Origin: Desulfomonilia bacterium
GTDB lineage: Bacteria; Desulfobacterota; Desulfomonilia; UBA1062
Assembly (NCBI GenBank): GCA_050014195.1
Contig: JBEKDT010000003.1
Location: forward strand, 160,001 to 224,000
Reading direction: 5' to 3'
Length of the DNA: 64,000 bases
Positions 40,211 to 54,643 of the stretch are shown in pieces. The number at the start of each line of letters is the position of its first letter. Positions within the stretch are counted from its first letter, which is position 1. Made by a program: the position numbers and the translations under genes. Below the pieces are notes generated by a model. That model worked only from the letters and a program-made list of their open reading frames with translations, was not told the DNA's origin and did not search any database.

Positions 40211-42637
40211 ATGAGTACGAACACCGTTGCCATAGACCAGGAGATGAGGCGCTCGTACCTGGACTATTCCATGAGCGTCATCATCGGACGCGCCATCCCT
40301 GATGTGCGCGACGGCCTTAAGCCCGTCCATAGAAGGATCCTGTTTGCCATGCAGGACCTGGGCAACACCCATACGAAGGCCTACAAGAAGTCGGCCCGCA
40401 TCGTGGGTGATGTCATTGGTAAGTACCATCCCCACGGTGACTCCGCAGTCTATGATGCCATTGTCCGCATGGCCCAGCCGTTCTCCTTGCGGTATCCCCT
40501 GGTCGACGGCCAGGGCAACTTCGGTTCCGTGGATGGCGATCCGGCCGCTGCCATGAGGTATACCGAGATCAGGATGTCGCGCATAGCCGAGGAGATGCTC
40601 GCTGATCTTGAAAAGAATACCGTGGATTTCCATCCCAACTACGACGAGTCTCTGCAGGAGCCCGATGTACTGCCCACGAGGATACCGGGGCTGCTGCTGA
40701 ACGGGTCTAGCGGTATCGCGGTGGGCATGGCCACCAGCATCCCGCCGCACAATGCCACCGAGCTGATGACCGCCCTGATCGCCCTAATCGACAAACCTGA
40801 TCTGACACTGCCCGAGATCATGCGGATCATCCCCGGGCCTGATTTCCCCACCGGCGGCATCATCATCTCCGAAGGCGAGATCGAGAAGGCCTACCGCACC
40901 GGCAGGGGCATCATCATTGTCCGCGGCAAGGTGGAAAGGGAGGAAGAGCAGAACCGGGAGAAGATCATCATCTCCGAGATCCCCTTTACCGTGAACAAGG
41001 CCGATCTCGTCACGCGCATCGCTCTCCTGGCCCAGGAAAAGAAGATCGACGGCATTGCCAACATCCGCGACGAGTCGGACAAGGACGGCATGCGCGTGGT
41101 CATCGAGCTGAAGAAGGGGGCTCCCGCCGAGGTCATCGAAAACCAGCTCTACAAGCTCACCACGCTCCAGGCCTCGTTCTCCATGAACCTGCTCGCCATA
41201 CACAACAACAGGCCCGCCACCATGGGTCTTTTACAGCTGCTTCAGGCCTTCCTTGATTTCCGCGAGGAGGTGGTCACCCGCAGGTGCCTCTTCGAACTGG
41301 CCAAGGCAAAGGACCGCATCCATATCTTGGACGGCCTCTTGAAGGCGTTAGAGCACATCGACGAGATCGTGGCGCTCATCAAGGCATCGGCCAACCCGCC
41401 TGAGGCAAAGATAAACCTGATGGAGCGCTTCGGCTTCTCCGAGATCCAGGCCCAGGCCATCTTGGACATGCGTCTCCAGAGGCTCACCGGACTGGAGCGA
41501 GACAAGCTTGCCGACGAGCACGCGGCACTTTCCAAAGAGATCAGGCGACTCGAGCTCATCCTTTCCGACCGCAATGAGCTGCTCAAGGTCATCAGGGCAG
41601 AGCTCCAAGAGGTCAAGGCCGACTACGCGGACGCCAGGCGGACCATGATCCTGAAGGGTGAGATCGGCGAATTCAACGTGGAAGACCTCATCCCCGATGA
41701 GAAGATGGTGGTCACCATCACCCGCAAGGGTTATGTGAAGCGCACCGAGCTCGACAAGTACCGCACCCAGAAGCGCGGCGGTGTGGGCGTCAAGGGGGCG
41801 TTGACCGGTGAGGACGACTTCATCGAGCACATCTTCGTGGCCACCAACCACACCTCCATCCTCTACTTCACCAACAAGGGCAGGGTGTACCACACCAAGG
41901 TATACGAGGTCCCGGAGCGCGACCGCGCGCTCAAGGGCGTGCCCATCGTGAACATTCGCCCCATCCAGAAGGAGGAGCGCATCTGCGCCATCCTGGTCAC
42001 CACCGACATCAACATGGAAGCCGAGGTCGTGATGGTAACCGCCATGGCCAACATCAAACGGGTCGAGCTCAAAAGCTTCAGCAACATCGTGCGCACGGGC
42101 ATCATCGCCTGCACGCTGGAGCCGGGCGACGAGGTCATGTCGGCCCGCATCACCACCGGCAGCACCCGCATCATCGTTGCATCCAGGGCCGGCAAGGCCA
42201 TCATCTTCCCGGCCGACCAGGTCCGAGTCATGGGCCGCCAGGCGCAAGGGGTGCGAGCCATCAAGCTCAATGAGGGCGATTCGGTTATCGGCATGGATGT
42301 CATCACGAGCGACGACGACCTGGTCATCAATCTGACCGAGTACGGCTTCGGCAAGAAGACTATTGTCAGCAAATACCCGGTCCAGAACCGAGCAGGCAAG
42401 GGTGTAAATACGGTCCACATCACCAAGAAGACCGGCGACCTCGTGGGGGTGAGGGTGATCAAGGACACCGACGAGCTCATGATCATATCCACGTCGGGCC
42501 AGATCATCCGCATGCCCGTGTCCCAGATCCGCACCACCCGCACGCGCTCTGCCCAGGGCGTGCGCGCCATACGCATGAAGGAAGACGAGAAGATCGTGGA
42601 CTTCACCAAGTACGTCAGCGAAGAAGACGCCGACTAA
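40211..42637 (+). CDS. gyrA: DNA gyrase subunit A
   Basis: [18 protein letters not shown], GyrA-box QKRGGVG. Confidence 0.98.
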
Positions 42638-42697: not shown

Positions 42698-42726
42698 CAA
42701 GAAATAACCCGCAGATTCATAACTCT

Positions 42727-42753
42727 GTCATTCCCGCGAAAGTGGGAATCCAG
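42727..42753. repeat. REP/dRS3-like palindrome GTCATTCCCGC-GAAA-GTGGGAATCCAG
   Basis: ATTCCC-N8-GGGAAT pattern. Confidence 0.65.
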
Positions 42754-42819
42754 GAAAGTGAAGGTGTTATTTTTGCGCTTGATGGAGAGTCTAAGATTTA
42801 TCTATCTTTTTAATTTTAT

Positions 42820-43152
42820 GTCCTTTCTTTTGGTGCCACAATTCGGCAGGATAGCCGAATTAGACGCACTTTACGTGCGCCCGAAGGGCGAAGGCCAGGG
42901 ATGGCCTGAGTCAAAAGAAAGGACCGAAGAAAAGGCACCCCGTGAACCCGCCCTTCGGGTCCGTTCGCTCGCTTGGAAAATCCGGGCCGCGGATAAATTT
43001 CTTCAGGATAGAAGAAATTGACGCACCGAAGGTGCGCCCAAAGGGTGAGGGACAAGGATGTCCCGAATCAAACTCGCTTCGTTTCACTTCGCTCAAACAA
43101 GAGACGCTTTCCCCTGGATTTTGCTTCACTCGCTCACCGGGGTCAAAGGGGA
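42820..43152 (+). repeat. Dispersed palindromic repeat (MITE-like), copy 1, with two nested hairpin modules
   Basis: Blocks CTTTCTTT..AAAGAAAG, AAGAAAAGGCACCC, CCCTTCGGG, GGAAAATCC, AACTCGCTTCG and TCAAACA are shared with the reverse complement of 45520-45774. Confidence 0.75.
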
Positions 43153-43340
43153 TCAAAAAGGCAAAAACACGATCTGGACAGGATTGGCAGGGAAGGGGAT
43201 ATCCGGAATGGAATATAAAAAGAATAATGCCTTGCACTCAATATCCGGATATACTGCAATTGTGCATCGGATAACTATAGTGATATCCTGCAAAAGTACA
43301 GTATAGTAATTGTTATGTGTTTCAGAAAGGGTAAAGACCC

Positions 43341-44456
43341 ATGAAAGCTGTTATTTTAAAACCTGTTATGTGGAATGAAAACGAGTATATCAGTCCCTCT
43401 GGCTATCCAAGTACGAGCGGTTTCGCAAATGCATTCGGATATGGACATGAGGAATGGAATAATAGCCAAAGGCGCATCTGGCGAAGCTATAAGGTCTTTC
43501 ATACTGAATCAACGGATAAATTATTGCAGTACTCTGCCACAGGAGAGCTCGCTATTGTTACAACTGCCTCCTTAAATAGAGCGCAATACGCCATTAGCAT
43601 TGCCACAAACGTCTTTGACAATAATGCAGATGAGCGTAAAATAATAGCGAAAGAGCTTAATGTATATAATGATTGGGTAGAAGTTTGGTCAATTGACAGG
43701 GTTAAGCAGTGTTTCAATAATAATCAACAGCGTTTTCTTGAGCATTGGCAAAGTAACTACGAGTGGATAAGATGGAAATGCCCAATATCTCAATATCACC
43801 ACTTCAATAGACCTGTACTCCTTAACCCTTCATCAATATCTGGTAAGGCTCGTCTCACTTCAATGCATGGTAGATTCCAGGCTATTTATCCAGAGCAATG
43901 TTTGCAAATTATCGGCAGCTACTTACCTGAAAATCATCCCATTTGCGAGTGGCTCTCGAGCAGGGATTTTGATGAGGAAATTATCTCAAAGACTATAAAG
44001 AACTTCCGTTCAACTCATAATATCAGATTGCCTCGTAGTAGGAGTGGATCAAATGCTCCTGCTATAAGGGCATATCAGTATTGGGTGGAAGGAAATCGGA
44101 GCGTAGAACCTCATCATGCGCTCCTACAGGCGAAGTTTGTAAACTACCTGACCTCGAATGCATTATCATATCAAGAAAACATTGATTACATTGACGTCAA
44201 ATACCAGCTAAACGGAATAGATGTTTTAGTAGAAATCAAACCTACTGATAAGATTCAGACCAAGTACGCTATACGCATTGCGATAGGGCAGCTACTTGAG
44301 TATAGATACATAATGAATAGTCAAGCGATTCTTGAGATAGTCCTTGGAAGTAAACCTAGAGATGAAGAGATAGCTTTCGTTAATTCATTAGGAATTTACT
44401 TAACCTACTTGGATTCAAATAGCGGCGATTTTATACGTGCTGGTACTGTCACATAA
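43341..44456 (+). CDS. Putative restriction-type endonuclease: unknown N-terminal domain plus C-terminal PD-(D/E)XK domain
   Basis: DYIDV...LVEIK...IRIAIGQLLEY; N-terminal WN..Y..PSG and GYGHEEWN; AT-rich. Confidence 0.7.
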   Translation: MKAVILKPVMWNENEYISPSGYPSTSGFANAFGYGHEEWNNSQRRIWRSYKVFHTESTDKLLQYSATGELAIVTTASLNRAQYAISIATNVFDNNADERKIIAKELNVYNDWVEVWSIDRVKQCFNNNQQRFLEHWQSNYEWIRWKCPISQYHHFNRPVLLNPSSISGKARLTSMHGRFQAIYPEQCLQIIGSYLPENHPICEWLSSRDFDEEIISKTIKNFRSTHNIRLPRSRSGSNAPAIRAYQYWVEGNRSVEPHHALLQAKFVNYLTSNALSYQENIDYIDVKYQLNGIDVLVEIKPTDKIQTKYAIRIAIGQLLEYRYIMNSQAILEIVLGSKPRDEEIAFVNSLGIYLTYLDSNSGDFIRAGTVT

Positions 44457-44479
44457 CCATGGCATGCAGGCCGTTGGCA
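44450..44479 (+). mobile_element. Degenerate, internally deleted attC-like site
   Basis: CACATAAC inverse core overlaps the stop codon and is complementary to GTTATGTG at 43312-43319; CATGCA L-box-like motif follows, then GTTGGCA. Confidence 0.55.
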
Positions 44480-44498
44480 ATAAACAAAGAGTATCCAT

Positions 44499-45377
44499 AT
44501 GAATGTATTTATAAGCTGGTCAGGCGAAGAAAGTAAAGCATATGCAGAGGTATTTCGACAATGGTTGCCTAAAATAATACAGGCCTGCGATCCATTTTAT
44601 TCACCTGAAGACATTAAAGCAGGAATGCGATGGAGTGCAGAAATTGCTGGTAAGCTGCAAGAGACAGAGATTGGCATTCTTTGCCTTACAAGGGATAATC
44701 TTAATGCTCCCTGGTTGATGTTTGAAGCAGGTGCTTTGTCTAAACAACTAGAATCAAGAGTGTGTCCCATTTTGTTCGGTTTAAGTCCAGCGGATATTCA
44801 GGGACCGTTGACTCAATTTCAATTAAATAAGTTTTGTCCCGATGGCGTATATAGAGTACTTTCATCAATAAACGATCTGTCAAAGCCAAATCGGTTATCT
44901 TCGGAGGTTTTAAAAGACTCATTTGACAAATGGTGGCCTGATCTTGACTCAAGTATATCAAAAGCCACACCAATAGTTAGTTCTCCAAGCATAGCCTCTT
45001 TACGAAGTGAACGTGACCTAATTGAAGAAATACTAATCCGAATCAGAAACAGTACCGTCGAGTCACCTATTGATCCAGCCATGGTCAGTATGTTGATAAG
45101 TTGTTTTGGTCGTCTCGCAGATACGCCCCGCTATATAGCAGATTCCAAGAAACAGGAAACGGCATCACACGCACTTTATCATTTTCAGCTCCCAATTCAA
45201 CACCTCATTACACGAATTATCGATACGCACAAACGCCATGAAATGGCTCAAGCTTATGCAGAGGCAATTAATGTTTTCTATAATGGCTCTGTTGATAAAG
45301 ATAAACTCATTGAAAATTTAACGAATCCTTCACATGGCCTGATTACAAGTGCTCCAATCATCCATAAGGCAGATTAA
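44499..45377 (+). CDS. TIR-domain protein with a helical C-terminal region
   Basis: MNVFISWSG, DIKAGMRW, GILCLT, PWLMFEAGALSK (catalytic-position Glu). Confidence 0.88.
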   Translation: MNVFISWSGEESKAYAEVFRQWLPKIIQACDPFYSPEDIKAGMRWSAEIAGKLQETEIGILCLTRDNLNAPWLMFEAGALSKQLESRVCPILFGLSPADIQGPLTQFQLNKFCPDGVYRVLSSINDLSKPNRLSSEVLKDSFDKWWPDLDSSISKATPIVSSPSIASLRSERDLIEEILIRIRNSTVESPIDPAMVSMLISCFGRLADTPRYIADSKKQETASHALYHFQLPIQHLITRIIDTHKRHEMAQAYAEAINVFYNGSVDKDKLIENLTNPSHGLITSAPIIHKAD

Positions 45378-45441
45378 AATTACAGACCATATTTTTTAAA
45401 AGCGGGCGGATGGCCTGGAAAAGATATAAATCTATGGGTGG

Positions 45442-45471
45442 CACGGGCGAAGCCCGAAGGGCTTGCCCGTG
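45442..45471. repeat. REP-like palindrome
   Basis: CACGGGC-G-AAGCCC-GAA-GGGCTT-GCCCGTG. Confidence 0.55.
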
Positions 45472-45519
45472 GGACATAGTAATAGTTAACGCCTTGCTTT
45501 TACTGCTCAGGTTTTTTTA

Positions 45520-45774
45520 GCCCCCCTCGAAACAGGCGAGGAGCGCAGGGAAAATCCGTAAAGAAGCAAGCCCATGTTTGATGCGATACATCCATGTATC
45601 GCACCCTGACGGGCGCACGTAAAGTGCGTCCAATTCTGCTATCCCTGCAGAATTGTGAGCGAAGCGAGTTGGCTTGCTTTAAGGATTTTCCCGAGCACCG
45701 CAGCGGACCCCGAAGGGGCTGTTTCGTTGGGTGCCTTTTCTTTGGTGACTTTCTTTGCACAAAAAGAAAGTAAC
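45520..45774 (-). repeat. Dispersed palindromic repeat (MITE-like), copy 2, with one nested hairpin module
   Basis: Reverse complement aligns block by block with 42820-43152. Confidence 0.75.
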
Positions 45775-46242
45775 AATGTAAGCAAATATGAATGCCCAAA
45801 TCTAACCCTCAGTTACTAAAGATTTAATCACGGTAAATCATTTTAAGAATATTAATTATTATCTCCATTAAAACAGCAATACCACTAATAACATTATAGC
45901 TAATTTAACTAGATAAATCAATTAACAAGAGCTTTACCTCTCAAAAAAGGGCATGTCGATAAAGTATTGAAGGTAGACCTAAGACGATTCCTAACTCAAG
46001 AAAATAATTGTTGGATTCATGCACGGTTTAATAACAATAAGTAACATATTGATTATATGATCATAGTTGCTATTATGGAATGCATGCATCTTTGAGGGTA
46101 ATCTATTTAAATAGAAATGTAGTGAAAGTAATTATGCCCTGTTTCATCTGAATAATTAATAAGGTGATATTGCAGGGACAGACTCCTGGACAAACGAAAG
46201 GTATTCTTATATATGTTGGTTAACCCGACACAAGGTGATCTC

Positions 46243-51694: not shown

Positions 51695-54643
51695 TCAGAA
51701 ATCCAGACGAGCCTTCCAGGCGGCCTTCAATGTGCCTAAGTCTTCCCGGATGAGGGCAGCCCCTGCTATCGATCTGACGGAAAGAAGTGTATCTGCTGTT
51801 GATTGCCCGATGCAAGCCGCATCCCTGCCGAAGAGCTTTTCTATTTTTTTAGCGTCTCTCGGGCTCACCTCGATAATGATCCTGCTCTGTGACTCGGAAT
51901 ACAGGATCTCCGTATCGTTCATACCGGTCTCGGAGGGGACCTTGCCCAGGTCGACGGCAAGACCGAATCCGCCGGAAAAGGCCATCTCAGCCAGACACAC
52001 GGCAAGCCCGCCGTCCGAGCAGTCATGGGCCGACAGGATGAGGCCCTCTGTTATGGCCCTGTGGAGCGAGCGGTATCGCTTTAAGGCCTTTTTTGCATCC
52101 ACTTCTGGTACGAAAGCGCCTTTTCTCCCGAAGGAAGCAAGATACTCGCTCCCGCCGAGCTCGTTCTTTGTCTTGCCCAGGATGTAGATGAGGCTGCCTT
52201 CGCGCTTGATGTCCATGGTCACGGCCTTCGTGATGTCAGGGATCTTGCCGATGACCGAGATCAGTATGGTAGGCGGTATGGAGATCTTGACGTCTCCGCC
52301 GATGTAATCGTTCTTCATGCTGTCTTTACCCGAGATCATGGGGCAGGAATAGGCAAGGGCATAGTCATAGAGCGCCCTGTTCGCCCTCACGAGCTGGGCG
52401 AGCTTGAATGAGCCGTCTTTGTTCCTTGCACTGACCACCGGGTCGCACCAGCAGAAGTTGTCGAGAAAGGCCCAGTGATCAGGGTTGCCGCCTACGCAGA
52501 TGTAGTTCCTGAGGGCCTCATCCAGGGCACAGGCAGCCATGTGATAGGCATCCAGGTCCGAATACCTGGGGACAATGCCGTTAGATACTACAACGCCCTC
52601 GTTGGAATCCAGCAGGGGCTGTATAACCCCGGCATCAGAAGGTCCGTCGCAGCATACGCCCACCAGGGGTTTGACGACAGAGCCGCCCTGAACCTCATGA
52701 TCGTATTGCCTTACCACGTATTCCTTGGAGCAGATGTTGAGCCTGCCGAGCATCTCCTTGAGCTTGGCTGCGTGGTCGGAAGGCTCCGGCGTCGGGCTTT
52801 TGTCCGCCGAAGGCGGTGTCCAACGGGCTGTAAGCTTCATGGTAGGAAGACCGTTGTGGAGGAAATCCAGGCTCAAGTACGCCACGGTCTTGCCGGCATA
52901 GGTGCAGTGGAAGAACCCTGAATCCGTGAAGGTGCCGATTACCGTGGATTCAACACCCATTTCCTGCGACAGGCCAAGGAAGGCCTGAATGTTCTCTTGG
53001 GGTACGGCCAGTGTCATACGCTCCTGCGCCTCGGAAAGAAGGATCTCCCACGGGCTCAGTCCGAGATATTTCACGAGCGGCTTTTCCAGCTCGATGTGGC
53101 ACCCGCCGCAGGAAGTAGCCATTTCACCCACGGATGAAGACAAGCCTCCCGCCCCGTCATCGGTGATAGCGTGGTAGAGGCCCTTATCACGGGCGACGAG
53201 CAGGAAGTCGGTGAGCTTCTTTTGGGTGATGGGGTCGCCTATCTGTACTGCGGATGTCGGGGACGATTCATGGAGTTCTTCAGAGGAGAATGTTGCACCG
53301 TGGATGCCGTCCTTGCCGATCCTGCCGCCAGACATAACGATTGAATCGCCGGGGATGATCTTTTTGATGTGGGATGGCTCTCCATTGATGATGGCGGGCA
53401 TGATGCCGGCTGTGCCGCAATAGACAAGGGGTTTCCCGAGATAGCGCTCGTCAAACACGATGCAGCCGTTGACTGTCGGGATTCCGGACTTGTTGCCGCC
53501 GTGCTCGACACCTTCCCTTACGCCCTCAAATATCCTCAAGGGGTGAAGGATTTTGGGCGGCAGCTTGCCCGTGTGGAACGGGCTTGCGAAGCAAAATACA
53601 TCCGTGTTGAAGATGAGCTTGGAGCCCATGCCAGTGCCGAAGGGGTCGCGGTTGACGCCCACGATGCCGGTGAGCGCACCGCCGTACGGGTCAAGGGCAG
53701 AGGGGGAGTTGTGGGTCTCCACCTTGAAGACCAGATTATGATTATCATTGAACCTTATAACGCCTGCATTGTCGGAGAAGACACTCACGCATATGTCATT
53801 TTTCCCGGCGGCCTTGCGGATTTTCGATGTGGCGCCCTTGATATAGGTTGAGAATAATGAAAAGATCTCTTCCGATTTTCCGTCTTCCTCGTAGGTTATA
53901 TGTGCATTGAAGATCTTGTGCTTGCAGTGCTCGGACCAGGTCTGGGCCAGACACTCGAGCTCCACGTCCGTTATCTTTTCGCCGAGTCCAAAAGCAGATC
54001 GCCTTTGCAGTGTCTCAGGGTCTTTCATATACCCTATAATTGTCTTCATCTCATTAAGGTTCAACGCCAGGGTCCGTTCCTGGGACAGCCGCAGCAGGGC
54101 ATCATCAGTAAGGTCCAGGGACAACTCTTCCACCACCGGCTCATGGAGCCCTGTAACCGTGGGGATAGAAGGTTCGATGGTCCCGCACTCGGGGTAACGC
54201 AGGACTTTAAGGGTATGGATGAGCGGGTTGGCCAGGCATTCATCTGCAATTGCCTGCGCGGTGTCTCTCTCAAGGTCGCCCTGAAGGAGGTACCCCCGTG
54301 CGGAATAGACATTTACGGTGCTGCCGGAGATGAGCTCCAGGGCGTACCTCGCACTGTGCCCCACGTTGTCGGTGACCCCCGGCTTGAACCCGACCTCGAT
54401 ATACCAGCCGCTCTCTGTTCGCAACAGAGTGCCTATGGCGATATCTTGGATGACCGGGTCACAGAAGGCCTCTTCAATCCATTCTCTTTTCAGGTCCTCT
54501 GCGGCGATATGATAGATATCAAAACAAAAGATTTGTCCGAGAGTCGTTAATTGTGGAAAGGCATGGAGGATCTGCCTTTTTACCCGTGCTCCCCGGGCAT
54601 CAAAGAGGTGCGGCTTGAGCCCGACCTCAACCCGCAAACCCAT
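51695..54643 (-). CDS. purL: FGAM synthase synthetase subunit with an N-terminal PurS-like extension
   Basis: QTWSEHCKH, ETHNSPS, DDGAGG, SEAQERM. Confidence 0.95.
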   Translation of the reverse strand: MGLRVEVGLKPHLFDARGARVKRQILHAFPQLTTLGQIFCFDIYHIAAEDLKREWIEEAFCDPVIQDIAIGTLLRTESGWYIEVGFKPGVTDNVGHSARYALELISGSTVNVYSARGYLLQGDLERDTAQAIADECLANPLIHTLKVLRYPECGTIEPSIPTVTGLHEPVVEELSLDLTDDALLRLSQERTLALNLNEMKTIIGYMKDPETLQRRSAFGLGEKITDVELECLAQTWSEHCKHKIFNAHITYEEDGKSEEIFSLFSTYIKGATSKIRKAAGKNDICVSVFSDNAGVIRFNDNHNLVFKVETHNSPSALDPYGGALTGIVGVNRDPFGTGMGSKLIFNTDVFCFASPFHTGKLPPKILHPLRIFEGVREGVEHGGNKSGIPTVNGCIVFDERYLGKPLVYCGTAGIMPAIINGEPSHIKKIIPGDSIVMSGGRIGKDGIHGATFSSEELHESSPTSAVQIGDPITQKKLTDFLLVARDKGLYHAITDDGAGGLSSSVGEMATSCGGCHIELEKPLVKYLGLSPWEILLSEAQERMTLAVPQENIQAFLGLSQEMGVESTVIGTFTDSGFFHCTYAGKTVAYLSLDFLHNGLPTMKLTARWTPPSADKSPTPEPSDHAAKLKEMLGRLNICSKEYVVRQYDHEVQGGSVVKPLVGVCCDGPSDAGVIQPLLDSNEGVVVSNGIVPRYSDLDAYHMAACALDEALRNYICVGGNPDHWAFLDNFCWCDPVVSARNKDGSFKLAQLVRANRALYDYALAYSCPMISGKDSMKNDYIGGDVKISIPPTILISVIGKIPDITKAVTMDIKREGSLIYILGKTKNELGGSEYLASFGRKGAFVPEVDAKKALKRYRSLHRAITEGLILSAHDCSDGGLAVCLAEMAFSGGFGLAVDLGKVPSETGMNDTEILYSESQSRIIIEVSPRDAKKIEKLFGRDAACIGQSTADTLLSVRSIAGAALIREDLGTLKAAWKARLDF

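Follow-up and report, generated by a model that had tools for sequence, protein, structure and literature searches.

The non-coding DNA beside gyrA in a Desulfomonilia bacterium (GenBank assembly GCA_050014195.1, contig JBEKDT010000003.1) raises the question of how one short, elaborately folded sequence comes to stand three times inside copies of another, larger repeat, and what its loops may do there. The stretch analysed, here called the window, is 64,000 nucleotides (nt) long and covers positions 160,001 to 224,000 of the contig. The sequence in question, which we call the module, is a unit of four hairpins, two of them with GGA in the loop, and the repeat around it is called host repeat H. 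We think that the module is probably a small, non-coding and non-autonomous mobile DNA unit, of the kind represented by repetitive extragenic palindromes (REPs), bacterial interspersed mosaic elements (BIMEs) and Rickettsia palindromic elements (RPEs).

Structure of the module

The 4.2-Mb genome was searched with a profile made from ten exact-core matches, and thereafter with a covariance model (R1). The profile found 24 full copies, all with E-values below 1e-11, and R1 found the same 24 at 77-104 bits and in addition two fragments at 29 bits. The three copies that the initial annotation had described in the window are all present where it placed them, with the stems and loops that it gave (84.8-98.9 bits, E about 1e-21 to 1e-25; Table 1). 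It was right in seeing a unit of four hairpins but took this to be about 72 nt long, and the true extent is 75-77 nt, beginning with the C or A that is the partner of column 27 and closing with TCA.

On the top strand the consensus of hairpin 1 is [C/A]A(A/T)TTC-nn-C(N)AGGAyAG-nn-GAA(A/T)T[G/T]. A GACG linker, which in the 24 own copies is GACG in 17/24, GATG in 5, GAAG in 1 and GTCG in 1, leads into hairpin 2, whose stem varies freely. Hairpin 3 has the consensus CCC-GNA-GGG and hairpin 4 the consensus YGA-stem-CAnGGATG-stem-GAR, after which TCA closes the unit. RNAalifold pairs the third base of the unit with column 27 (C-G 16, A-U 7) and extends hairpin 4, via a tandem G.A/A.G step, to an outer and covarying Y-R pair that is C-G in 44 and U-A in 41 of 101 distinct rows; in the third window copy hairpin 4 is longer, with G-C and C-G pairs replacing the G.A step.

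The window copies fold far better than shuffled versions of themselves (z -4.6 to -7.2 on the given strand, 0/200 shuffles as good), and the compensatory stem changes that had been noticed in three copies hold with many more. In the 24 own copies 94.7% of the cells are paired and 11 of the 23 pairs have changed on both sides, a level of covariation that none of 500 column shuffles reached for four of five measures and that 5/500 reached for the remaining one, further pair types, while sliding the partners against each other cuts pairing to 25-45%. Among 105 copies from other genomes 95.6% of the cells are paired and 20/24 pairs have changed on both sides; the covariation score is 0.433, against 0.128 for shuffled and at most 0.060 for slid alignments, and 0/500 shuffles were as high. 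The pattern used to gather this larger set required both GGA loops, so that it is silent on loop conservation, and its alignment was fitted to the covariance model, outside which hairpin 3 lies. The four-hairpin picture stands nevertheless, since hairpin 3, though outside the model, flips compensatorily from CCC/GGG to GGG/CCC in the Mariprofundus-labelled copies. That the module is selected for its structure, as was first suggested, is thus supported: all four hairpins covary, above both the shuffled and the slid controls, as would be expected if selection preserved the four stems but not their individual letters. As to the strand, G-T/T-G cells number 56 and A-C/C-A cells 28 when one constant G-T pair is excluded, and this excess together with the conserved tandem G.A gives a hint in favour of the strand as written, although the shared ancestry of the copies weakens the count.

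Insertion sites and ends

An alignment of 15 copies of host repeat H reveals three insertion sites (B, C and D; Table 1), each of them filled in some copies and empty in others. Site B is empty in nine of the aligned copies, and site D is empty in other copies of H besides the left one of the window. The string TTCGCTCAAACA had been taken for the site of the second module standing empty around the first; it is instead the empty counterpart of the site that the minus-strand third module fills in the right repeat. Neither a target duplication nor terminal inverted repeats are seen at the filled and empty sites, the ends CAATTC... and ...GAGTCA not being inverted repeats of each other. The ambiguity of the junctions is 2-3 nt in host repeat H, and the overlap with the target is 1-3 nt across all cases.

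The ends were placed by a regular expression, which fitted 91 of 129 aligned copies, the other 38 being dropped. In these 91 copies the 5' flank is BA (A after C, G or T) and the 3' end is TCA, and insertion is directly 3' of an A, mostly of a CA. The claim that the module is always followed by CAAA is true of the window, but in the whole genome only CA is constant (24/24), with CAAA in 11/24 and CAC in 12/24. What looked like a CAAA target shrinks to a flanking A and the terminal TCA. The module is copied or inserted as a precise unit 3' of an A, without target duplication. Units also stand head-to-tail in arrays, and the next unit then begins immediately past the TCA of the previous one; one array in G015, a genome of the same family (f1), has six units and an end made of hairpin 1 only, and it starts 30 nt after a stop codon. 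Further arrays occur elsewhere.

The contexts are varied. The larger host repeats are here referred to as types A, H, J and K. About ten of the own copies sit in a repeat of the form CCCCTCACCC / CCCTCTCCC-loop-GGGAGAGGG, on the 5' side of its inner hairpin; a regular expression finds 33 CCCCTCACCC-type repeats in the genome, most of them without a module. Another host repeat opens with ...GAGGAGCC...GACG and closes with ...GCGCTTGATTGAGA, and a 340-nt composite of this repeat and two modules on contig C4 is missing at the matching locus of the congener G003. Different module subtypes fill the same position of type A host repeats. Altogether, the unit with its constant ends is found in at least five unrelated contexts, and at three sites of one host repeat. 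A lone hairpin 1 at G000:C23:7566-7617 (+), G000 being the genome of the window, tips a perfect long palindrome built with the arms of a CCCCTCACCC-type repeat.

Unique coding sequence has been hit as well. In mnmE of the Nitrospinota-labelled genome G062 there is an 84-nt (28-codon) in-frame module that is absent from its relatives G108, G110 and G109. The insertions are nested and lie after the DTAGIR motif (L228:2290-2570 in G062; also L229, L231 and L230): an outer in-frame insert of about 100 nt is common to G062, G108 and G110 and absent in G109, and only in G062 does it have the module inside it. The open reading frame (ORF) remains open, with 523 aa. The usual TCA end is here followed by AAT, the first letters of a unit of the AAATTTC type. 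An IMG/VR contig has a second in-frame module, where a GGACT-family ORF begins. No more than these two in-frame cases were seen among the about 150 copies that were examined together with their surroundings; most by far are intergenic, as are all of the own copies (24/24). Of 79 further copies, placed by crude ORF calls, 13 have convergent genes on their two sides and 1 has divergent ones, and such a preference for convergent over divergent neighbours is a pattern known for REPs. The usual landing place of the module is thus an intergenic hairpin repeat behind a gene, with now and then an in-frame insertion in a coding sequence.

Distribution among genomes

Searches with R1 found the module in 16/61 relatives: in 15/36 genomes of its own family, f1, where the own genus g1 accounts for 5/14, and in 0/24 of the sister family f2. 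In the class as a whole it is present in 18/98 genomes (f1 17/42, f2 0/55), with 0-73 copies per genome. A pattern scan over one genome per species gave 78 loci, in records labelled Desulfomonilia, Syntrophaceae, 'Deltaproteobacteria', Zetaproteobacteria/Mariprofundus, Nitrospinota and Ectothiorhodospiraceae. These NCBI labels are unreliable, as a metagenome-assembled genome (MAG) filed under 'Bacteriovoracaceae' is in fact G015, of family f1. R1 matches number 20 in the pure culture Mariprofundus sp. EBB-1, 18 in an Ectothiorhodospiraceae-labelled MAG, and 52 (G062), 40 (G108), 47 (G109) and 17 (G110) in four related Nitrospinota-labelled genomes. One pattern match in a Firmicutes record labelled Saliterribacillus (L057) is put down to chance, as the covariance model fails to recognise it. 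No module match came from the plasmid and phage collections, and of eight loci from the pattern scan of IMG/VR one is a true module.

The spread is patchy within one family, and it extends into other phyla. Such patchiness, unequal copy numbers in congeners and occurrence in several phyla are what a horizontally moving selfish element would look like. The first reading of the locus, as a discrete insertion unit nested in other repeats, is borne out by this pattern of 0-73 copies, by the filled and empty sites of host repeat H, by the composite missing in G003 and by the in-frame insert in mnmE.

The GGA loops and CsrA

It had also been proposed that the loops are binding sites for CsrA. The loop of hairpin 4 with its closing pairs reads CAnGGATG in 22/24 own copies, and that of hairpin 1 reads CAGGAyAG, or CA-N-GGA if it is one base longer, so that both fit CA(N)GGA(N)G; in one array both read CANGGANG. 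The CsrA consensus obtained by systematic evolution of ligands by exponential enrichment (SELEX) is quoted in PMC4347634 as RUACARGGAUGU with GGA in a hairpin loop, and the module loops fit it. One could therefore regard the module as an RNA device, with two CsrA/RsmA hairpins about 50 nt apart, in which single copies would regulate their neighbours and arrays would act as sponges in the manner of CsrB, mobility being a mere means of distribution. This is compatible with a mobile unit, and we consider it possible, but would not bet on it.

Several correlations speak for it. CsrA is encoded in 33/36 f1 genomes, that of the window included, and in 0/24 f2 genomes, and the module is likewise present in the former family and absent from the latter; CsrA is also found in 4/5 module-bearing genomes of other groups. 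The genus g10 is the sole CsrA-less genus of the family, without a CsrA match in 4/4 genomes (93-97% complete), and its modules, 28 aligned copies and four further loci from these four genomes, have no GGA in either loop. They do keep the stems, the GACG linker, CCCGAAGGG, the YGA...GAATCA frame of hairpin 4 and the compensatory changes, the loop of hairpin 4 being unconserved, and they number 12-20 per genome. Because a lineage without them reaches such copy numbers, the GGA loops are evidently not needed for persistence or multiplication. The loss of GGA in g10 coincides with that of CsrA, the presumed reader, but this is a single evolutionary event. The six-unit array in G015 lies in sense behind its gene, and in G064, the Ectothiorhodospiraceae-labelled MAG, a module (C46:52895-52981, -) and csrA (53363-53512) share a strand, with the module some 380 nt downstream, which is a single case. 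Rfam, searched at E up to 1 with five loci, returned CsrC at 19.7 bits (E 0.012; threshold 61), RsmY at 19.6 bits (threshold 57) and mir-337, all of them weak, and at gathering score it matches tRNAs alone in the window.

Other results speak against the device. The Nitrospinota-labelled clade has GGA in both loops in 21/21 aligned copies while the neighbouring loop letters vary, yet three of its four genomes (G062, G109 and G110, for which completeness is not given) have no CsrA match even at E up to 10. Among the four only G108 has a csrA, and the contig that bears it is flagellar, encoding a FliW and an FlgL for which the other three genomes have no orthologue. The best Rfam score is far under the 61-bit threshold of the family. 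An antisense copy would show UCC instead of GGA, and a bias for the sense orientation is lacking: between co-directional genes we count 9 sense and 6 antisense copies in the own genome and 5 sense and 6 antisense in the other CsrA-positive f1 genomes. With crude ORF calls and small numbers, the Nitrospinota-labelled genomes have 8 sense and 2 antisense copies and genus g10 has 5 sense and 15 antisense, so that the GGA-less modules show a trend (antisense 15/20) opposite to that of the Nitrospinota-labelled set. Support for the proposal is mixed: in its favour are the fit of the loops and the GGA-less modules of the CsrA-less genus; against it are the GGA loops of three genomes without a CsrA match, and the lack of a sense bias. 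The GGA loops may be an add-on to the mobile unit, read by a host protein, for which CsrA would be the obvious candidate where it is present.

How the module may move

The insertion next to an A, the terminal TCA, the subterminal hairpin, the arrays with their precise start and partial last unit and the AAT at mnmE suggest how a mobile module might be propagated. A trans-acting enzyme, encoded elsewhere and not beside the copies, would recognise the single-stranded top strand, and the reaction would most simply be of the nick-and-join or rolling-circle type on single-stranded DNA. Alternatively, a circular or tandem form could recombine at the overlap of 1-3 nt. The AAT past the TCA in mnmE may then be a run-on into the next unit.

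The following results weigh against a mobile module, or against this view of its movement. No mover enzyme was found among the families searched, namely Y1 (IS200 and the REP-associated tyrosine transposases, RAYT), Y2 (IS91) and IS110. Genes matching PF01797 occur in 48/61 relatives irrespective of the module, and in 20/31 genomes of the Nitrospinota-labelled set, with 6/6 module carriers and 14/25 module-free genomes among them. Fifteen Y1 loci scanned with the full model, filters off, have no module-like ends (best 10.8 bits), and the IS200 copy of the own genome (in L018) has end hairpins of the ACCCCCGGCTCTGCCGGGGT type, which are unrelated to the module. IS91 with its Y2 transposase was rejected, as it is found in 10/52 genomes of the family and in neither G000 nor g10. 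IS110, found in 19/52, was rejected too, as it fails to separate carriers from the rest and has no module ends. It is present in 10/15 high-copy carriers, 7/32 module-free genomes and 2/5 genomes with a single match, a tally confounded by kinship. The orientation of the module relative to GC skew is concordant at 7, discordant at 10 and ambiguous at 2 loci, and because there is no consistent bias with respect either to GC skew or to flanking genes, a route tied to single-stranded DNA at replication has no support from strand statistics. The complementary strand folds equally well, and the folding energy names no strand. Many copies share one position of a larger repeat (types A, H and K), so that part of the copy number reflects the spread of composites and not independent insertions. 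One 'empty' site in G003 retains the first 10 nt of the module, for which a deletion or a run-on copy is the best reading, some empty sites thus being deletions. Finally, neither excision products nor circles nor a polymorphism at the same locus within one population came to light. Joints that skip the module in contigs of four runs (42992 to 43071, CTG between) were considered as polymorphism and rejected, as their sides are 30 nt and match paralogous empty host repeats.

In G034 one IS110 gene is followed, at a distance of about 340 nt, by a complete module, and nothing was found at three other IS110 loci. The partial module matches in the own genome, C21:19464, C4:154681 and C23:7566, adjoin ordinary metabolic genes and not transposases, and beside one module in a Nitrospinota-labelled genome the ORFs look ordinary by eye, no family scan having been made.

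The initial annotation had pointed to HUH transposases, and in its strict form this would make the module a REP proper or another miniature element of the kind, which a Y1 enzyme encoded elsewhere, be it a RAYT or the TnpA of an IS200/IS605 element, cuts and joins in the form of single-stranded DNA. Hairpins near both ends, the absence of a duplication, insertion 3' of a short motif and a top strand that seems to matter all agree with this, as does the bottom strand of hairpin 1, which has the build of a CGTC-tagged REP (PMC3733652). The own genome has two Y1 genes, one IS200 TnpA and one RAYT-like, and every module carrier of the Nitrospinota-labelled set has one. Yet Y1 genes are as common where the module is missing, the Y1 loci lack its ends and the IS200 hairpins are of another kind, and for these reasons the link is not supported. 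Three genomes with modules (G004, G013 and G033) have no Y1 match, though of these G004 and G013 are no more than 71 and 76% complete. The RAYT-like gene (L019:1396-1863, -, on G000:C5) is short, encoding 155 aa and ending after RPEDY, scores 63.9 bits against an NCBIfam cut-off of 80, and is bracketed by an unrelated inverted repeat of its own, GGGGACACAATAC / GTATTGTGTCCCC. A GTAG tag is lacking, hairpin 1 leaves no space on its 5' side for a guide sequence, and nothing more than an A serves as target. The CGTC-tagged REPs, as described in PMC3733652, are themselves without a dedicated transposase. All in all a Y1 enzyme as the mover seems doubtful.

It is still less probable that the module does not move on its own at all, and is merely an optional segment of the larger repeats (types A, H, J and K), scattered by recombination, conversion and deletion and multiplied into arrays by slippage. 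Most own copies do stand at one or another of a small number of set positions within larger repeats, whole composites come and go as blocks, one empty site has the remnant mentioned above and arrays end in partial units. But an optional segment would hardly have identical ends in so many unrelated contexts and at three sites of host repeat H, or be inserted in unique coding sequence with empty orthologous sites, as in mnmE, and this view would hardly explain the different subtypes at the same type A position or the copies with other flanks in other phyla.

GNA triloops closed by C-G are typical of stable DNA hairpins. Spread via RNA, where a folded top-strand transcript, possibly circular or multimeric, would be reverse-transcribed and integrated as unit-length and tandem copies, is very unlikely: the fold on one strand with G-U pairs and tandem G.A, the head-to-tail arrays, the precise 5' start, the partial last unit and a possible run-on from a tandem or circular template at mnmE would suit it, but there is no poly-A, no pattern of 5' truncation and no match to a ribozyme or other Rfam family, and hairpins 2 and 3 with their C-G-closed GNA triloops point to DNA.

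Surroundings in the window

The features of the window are collected in Table 1. Host repeat H is multi-copy, rich in hairpins and without inverted ends; it has a long-range pairing ggaaaatccggg / cccggattttcc, and its first hairpin has two alternative pairings. The small separate repeat TGTC-ATTCCCGC-GAAA-GTGGGAAT-CCA belongs to this mosaic too, and it also precedes host repeat H on contigs C15 and C16. The bin 42705-42845 has a summed contig depth of 340-4700x in four peat metagenomes, and because of this depth the TGTC-ATTCCCGC repeat is taken to be very common in the peat habitat. DNA of the window is present in 24 peat or wetland DNA sequencing runs among the runs listed, and in no RNA run among them, which is silent on expression.

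Of the two proteins encoded in the AT-rich island between the inverted copies of H, the one with a TIR domain matches TIR_2 at 33.7 bits and PADLOC PDLC03016 at 221 bits, and the 371-aa protein has no match in Pfam, NCBIfam or PADLOC. The island looks like a defence cassette, delivered or bracketed by H repeats. The GC skew changes sign beside gyrB-gyrA (contig C3 at about 200 kb, window at about 40000), from -0.059 to +0.04 in 20-kb bins, and this is probably the region of the replication origin.

Table 1. Positions of the module copies, host repeats and neighbouring features in the window, and sequences of the insertion sites in host repeat H (square brackets enclose the inserted module)
Feature	Position	Strand	Remarks
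Module copy 1	42839..42913	+	75 nt; covariance model 98.9 bits; site B, loop of the 5' hairpin of host repeat H
Module copy 2	42996..43070	+	75 nt; covariance model 98.3 bits; hairpin 1 of AAATTTC type; site C of host repeat H
Module copy 3	45579..45655	-	77 nt; covariance model 84.8 bits; site D of the inverted host repeat H
Host repeat H, left copy	42820..43161	+	about 190 nt minus its two modules; blastn against the genome and 15-copy alignment
Host repeat H, right copy, inverted	45522..45775	-	site B empty (gttactttctttttgtgCAaagaaagtcacc), site D filled; blastn and alignment
Empty site D in left host repeat H	43088..43099	+	TTCGCTCAAACA = cttcgctCAaaca; sequence and H alignment
Site B of host repeat H			empty ggtgcCAaaag; filled ggtgcCA[C...GAGTCA]aaag
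Site C of host repeat H			empty gcggATAaactcgc, C6 copy reading gcggATA|aactcgc; filled gcggATA[AATTTC...GAATCA]aactcgc
Site D of host repeat H			empty cgctCAaaca; filled cgctCA[C...GCATCA]aaca
gyrA, gene 5' of the repeat mosaic	40211..42637	+	DNA_topoisoIV, 550.9 bits
Small separate repeat TGTC-ATTCCCGC-GAAA-GTGGGAAT-CCA	42726..42752	+	built like CGTC-tagged REPs, dRS3 kind
AT-rich two-gene island between the inverted H copies	43341..45377	+	371-aa protein and 292-aa TIR-domain protein
Further hairpin repeat gggtggcacgggcgaagcccgaagggcttgcccgtgggac	45408-45470	+	matches on 10 contigs of the genome (blastn)

Significance

Small hairpin repeats are common in bacteria, but for few of them are the mover and the benefit known. 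The module family is unusually informative, as its four stems covary across phyla and its ends can be read to the base, even in a housekeeping gene. Its natural versions with and without GGA separate the needs of spread from a possible use to the host. If the loops bind CsrA, the family would supply CsrA sites that are dispersed and mobile; otherwise the strict conservation of GGA in CsrA-less hosts points to another reader. One carrier, Mariprofundus sp. EBB-1, is recorded as a pure culture and so opens transcription, CsrA binding and mobility to direct tests. In annotation, many MAGs from peat, from marine habitats and of iron oxidisers have contig breaks and odd small ORFs for which a covariance model of the family would account. 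One may also speculate that the module represents a whole new class of element, a structure-specified unit moved through a single-stranded or circular intermediate by an unrecognised enzyme family in at least three phyla, with loops that would connect genes to the CsrA network or titrate it, and that would be gained and lost together with their reader, but taken as a whole we find this rather improbable.

Comparison with known systems

REPs, and their doublets (REPINs) that go with a RAYT, are short extragenic hairpin repeats thought to move as single-stranded DNA. The module resembles these, and BIMEs, in being short, extragenic and non-autonomous, in its patchy presence in relatives and in forming mosaics with other motifs. 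It differs from REPs and REPINs in that none of the 24 own copies has a GTAG beside any hairpin, in forming no inverted doublets, as neighbouring modules are head-to-tail and the inverted pair in the window belongs to host repeat H, and in having no flanking or co-distributed RAYT; its spread is also widely horizontal, whereas theirs is mostly vertical.

The palindrome-associated transposable elements (PATEs) of the IS200/IS605 family follow the IS608 paradigm, without terminal inverted repeats or target duplication and with strand-specific insertion 3' of a short motif. The module has no inverted ends either, no duplication beyond the overlap of 1-3 nt, and hairpins near both ends. But its target motif is reduced to one A in the 91 copies with placed ends, as compared with 4-5 nt in PATEs, its hairpin 1 starts at the very first base, and no parent insertion sequence with module ends was found at the 15 Y1 loci or in the own IS200. 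Miniature inverted-repeat transposable elements differ from the module in that it has neither terminal inverted repeats nor a target-site duplication.

With the regulatory RNAs CsrB, CsrC, RsmY and RsmZ the module shares the GGA in hairpin loops, two per module, so that the six-unit array would offer 12 sites. Unlike these, the module is no single-copy gene equipped with a promoter and a terminator of its own, it scores below the Rfam thresholds, it occurs in both orientations, and it is present in genomes without a detectable CsrA. RPEs occur as in-frame inserts in genes, and the module is likewise in frame inside conserved genes (mnmE and the GGACT-family ORF), though the two cases among so many copies make this the exception.

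The closest likeness is to the CGTC-tagged REPs, which include dRS3 of Neisseria and RPE-4 and RPE-6 of Rickettsia and form four families (Di Nocera et al. 2013, PMC3733652). As described there, they are small palindromes with a tetranucleotide tag at one end and stems of 8-9 bp that open with A-T pairs; they are found between genes that are unidirectional or convergent, some within genes, and often inside other palindromes or mosaics. Read on the bottom strand, hairpin 1 of the module is CGTC + (C)AATTCnnC + loop + GnnGAATT(G) + TG, thus a tag (CGTC, or TGTC/CCTC in that family group) followed by a covarying 9-bp stem that opens with A-T pairs. The module is nested in other repeats as they are, has its intragenic cases and, as far as searched, no dedicated transposase, and a classical unit of their sort, TGTC-ATTCCCGC...GGGAAT-CCA, lies 90 nt upstream in the window. 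Set against that description, the module is a fixed 75-nt unit in which the tagged hairpin is one of four; its loop has 6-7 nt with a conserved GGA where theirs has 4-5 nt, its tail is TG and theirs CCA, it stands single or head-to-tail and they form head-to-head dimers, and its tag overlaps the first pairs of hairpin 2. We have therefore filed it beside the CGTC superfamily and outside its four families, as far as the descriptions given of these set it apart. The module is undescribed in the full-text literature that was searched, and other descriptions may exist, for instance among consensus sequences in the figures or supplements of PMC3733652. Our verdict is a new family, closest in kind to CGTC-tagged REPs and RPEs, and what sets it apart is its four-hairpin architecture, its head-to-tail arrays, its spread across phyla and its two loops that resemble protein sites and are present or absent as a pair.

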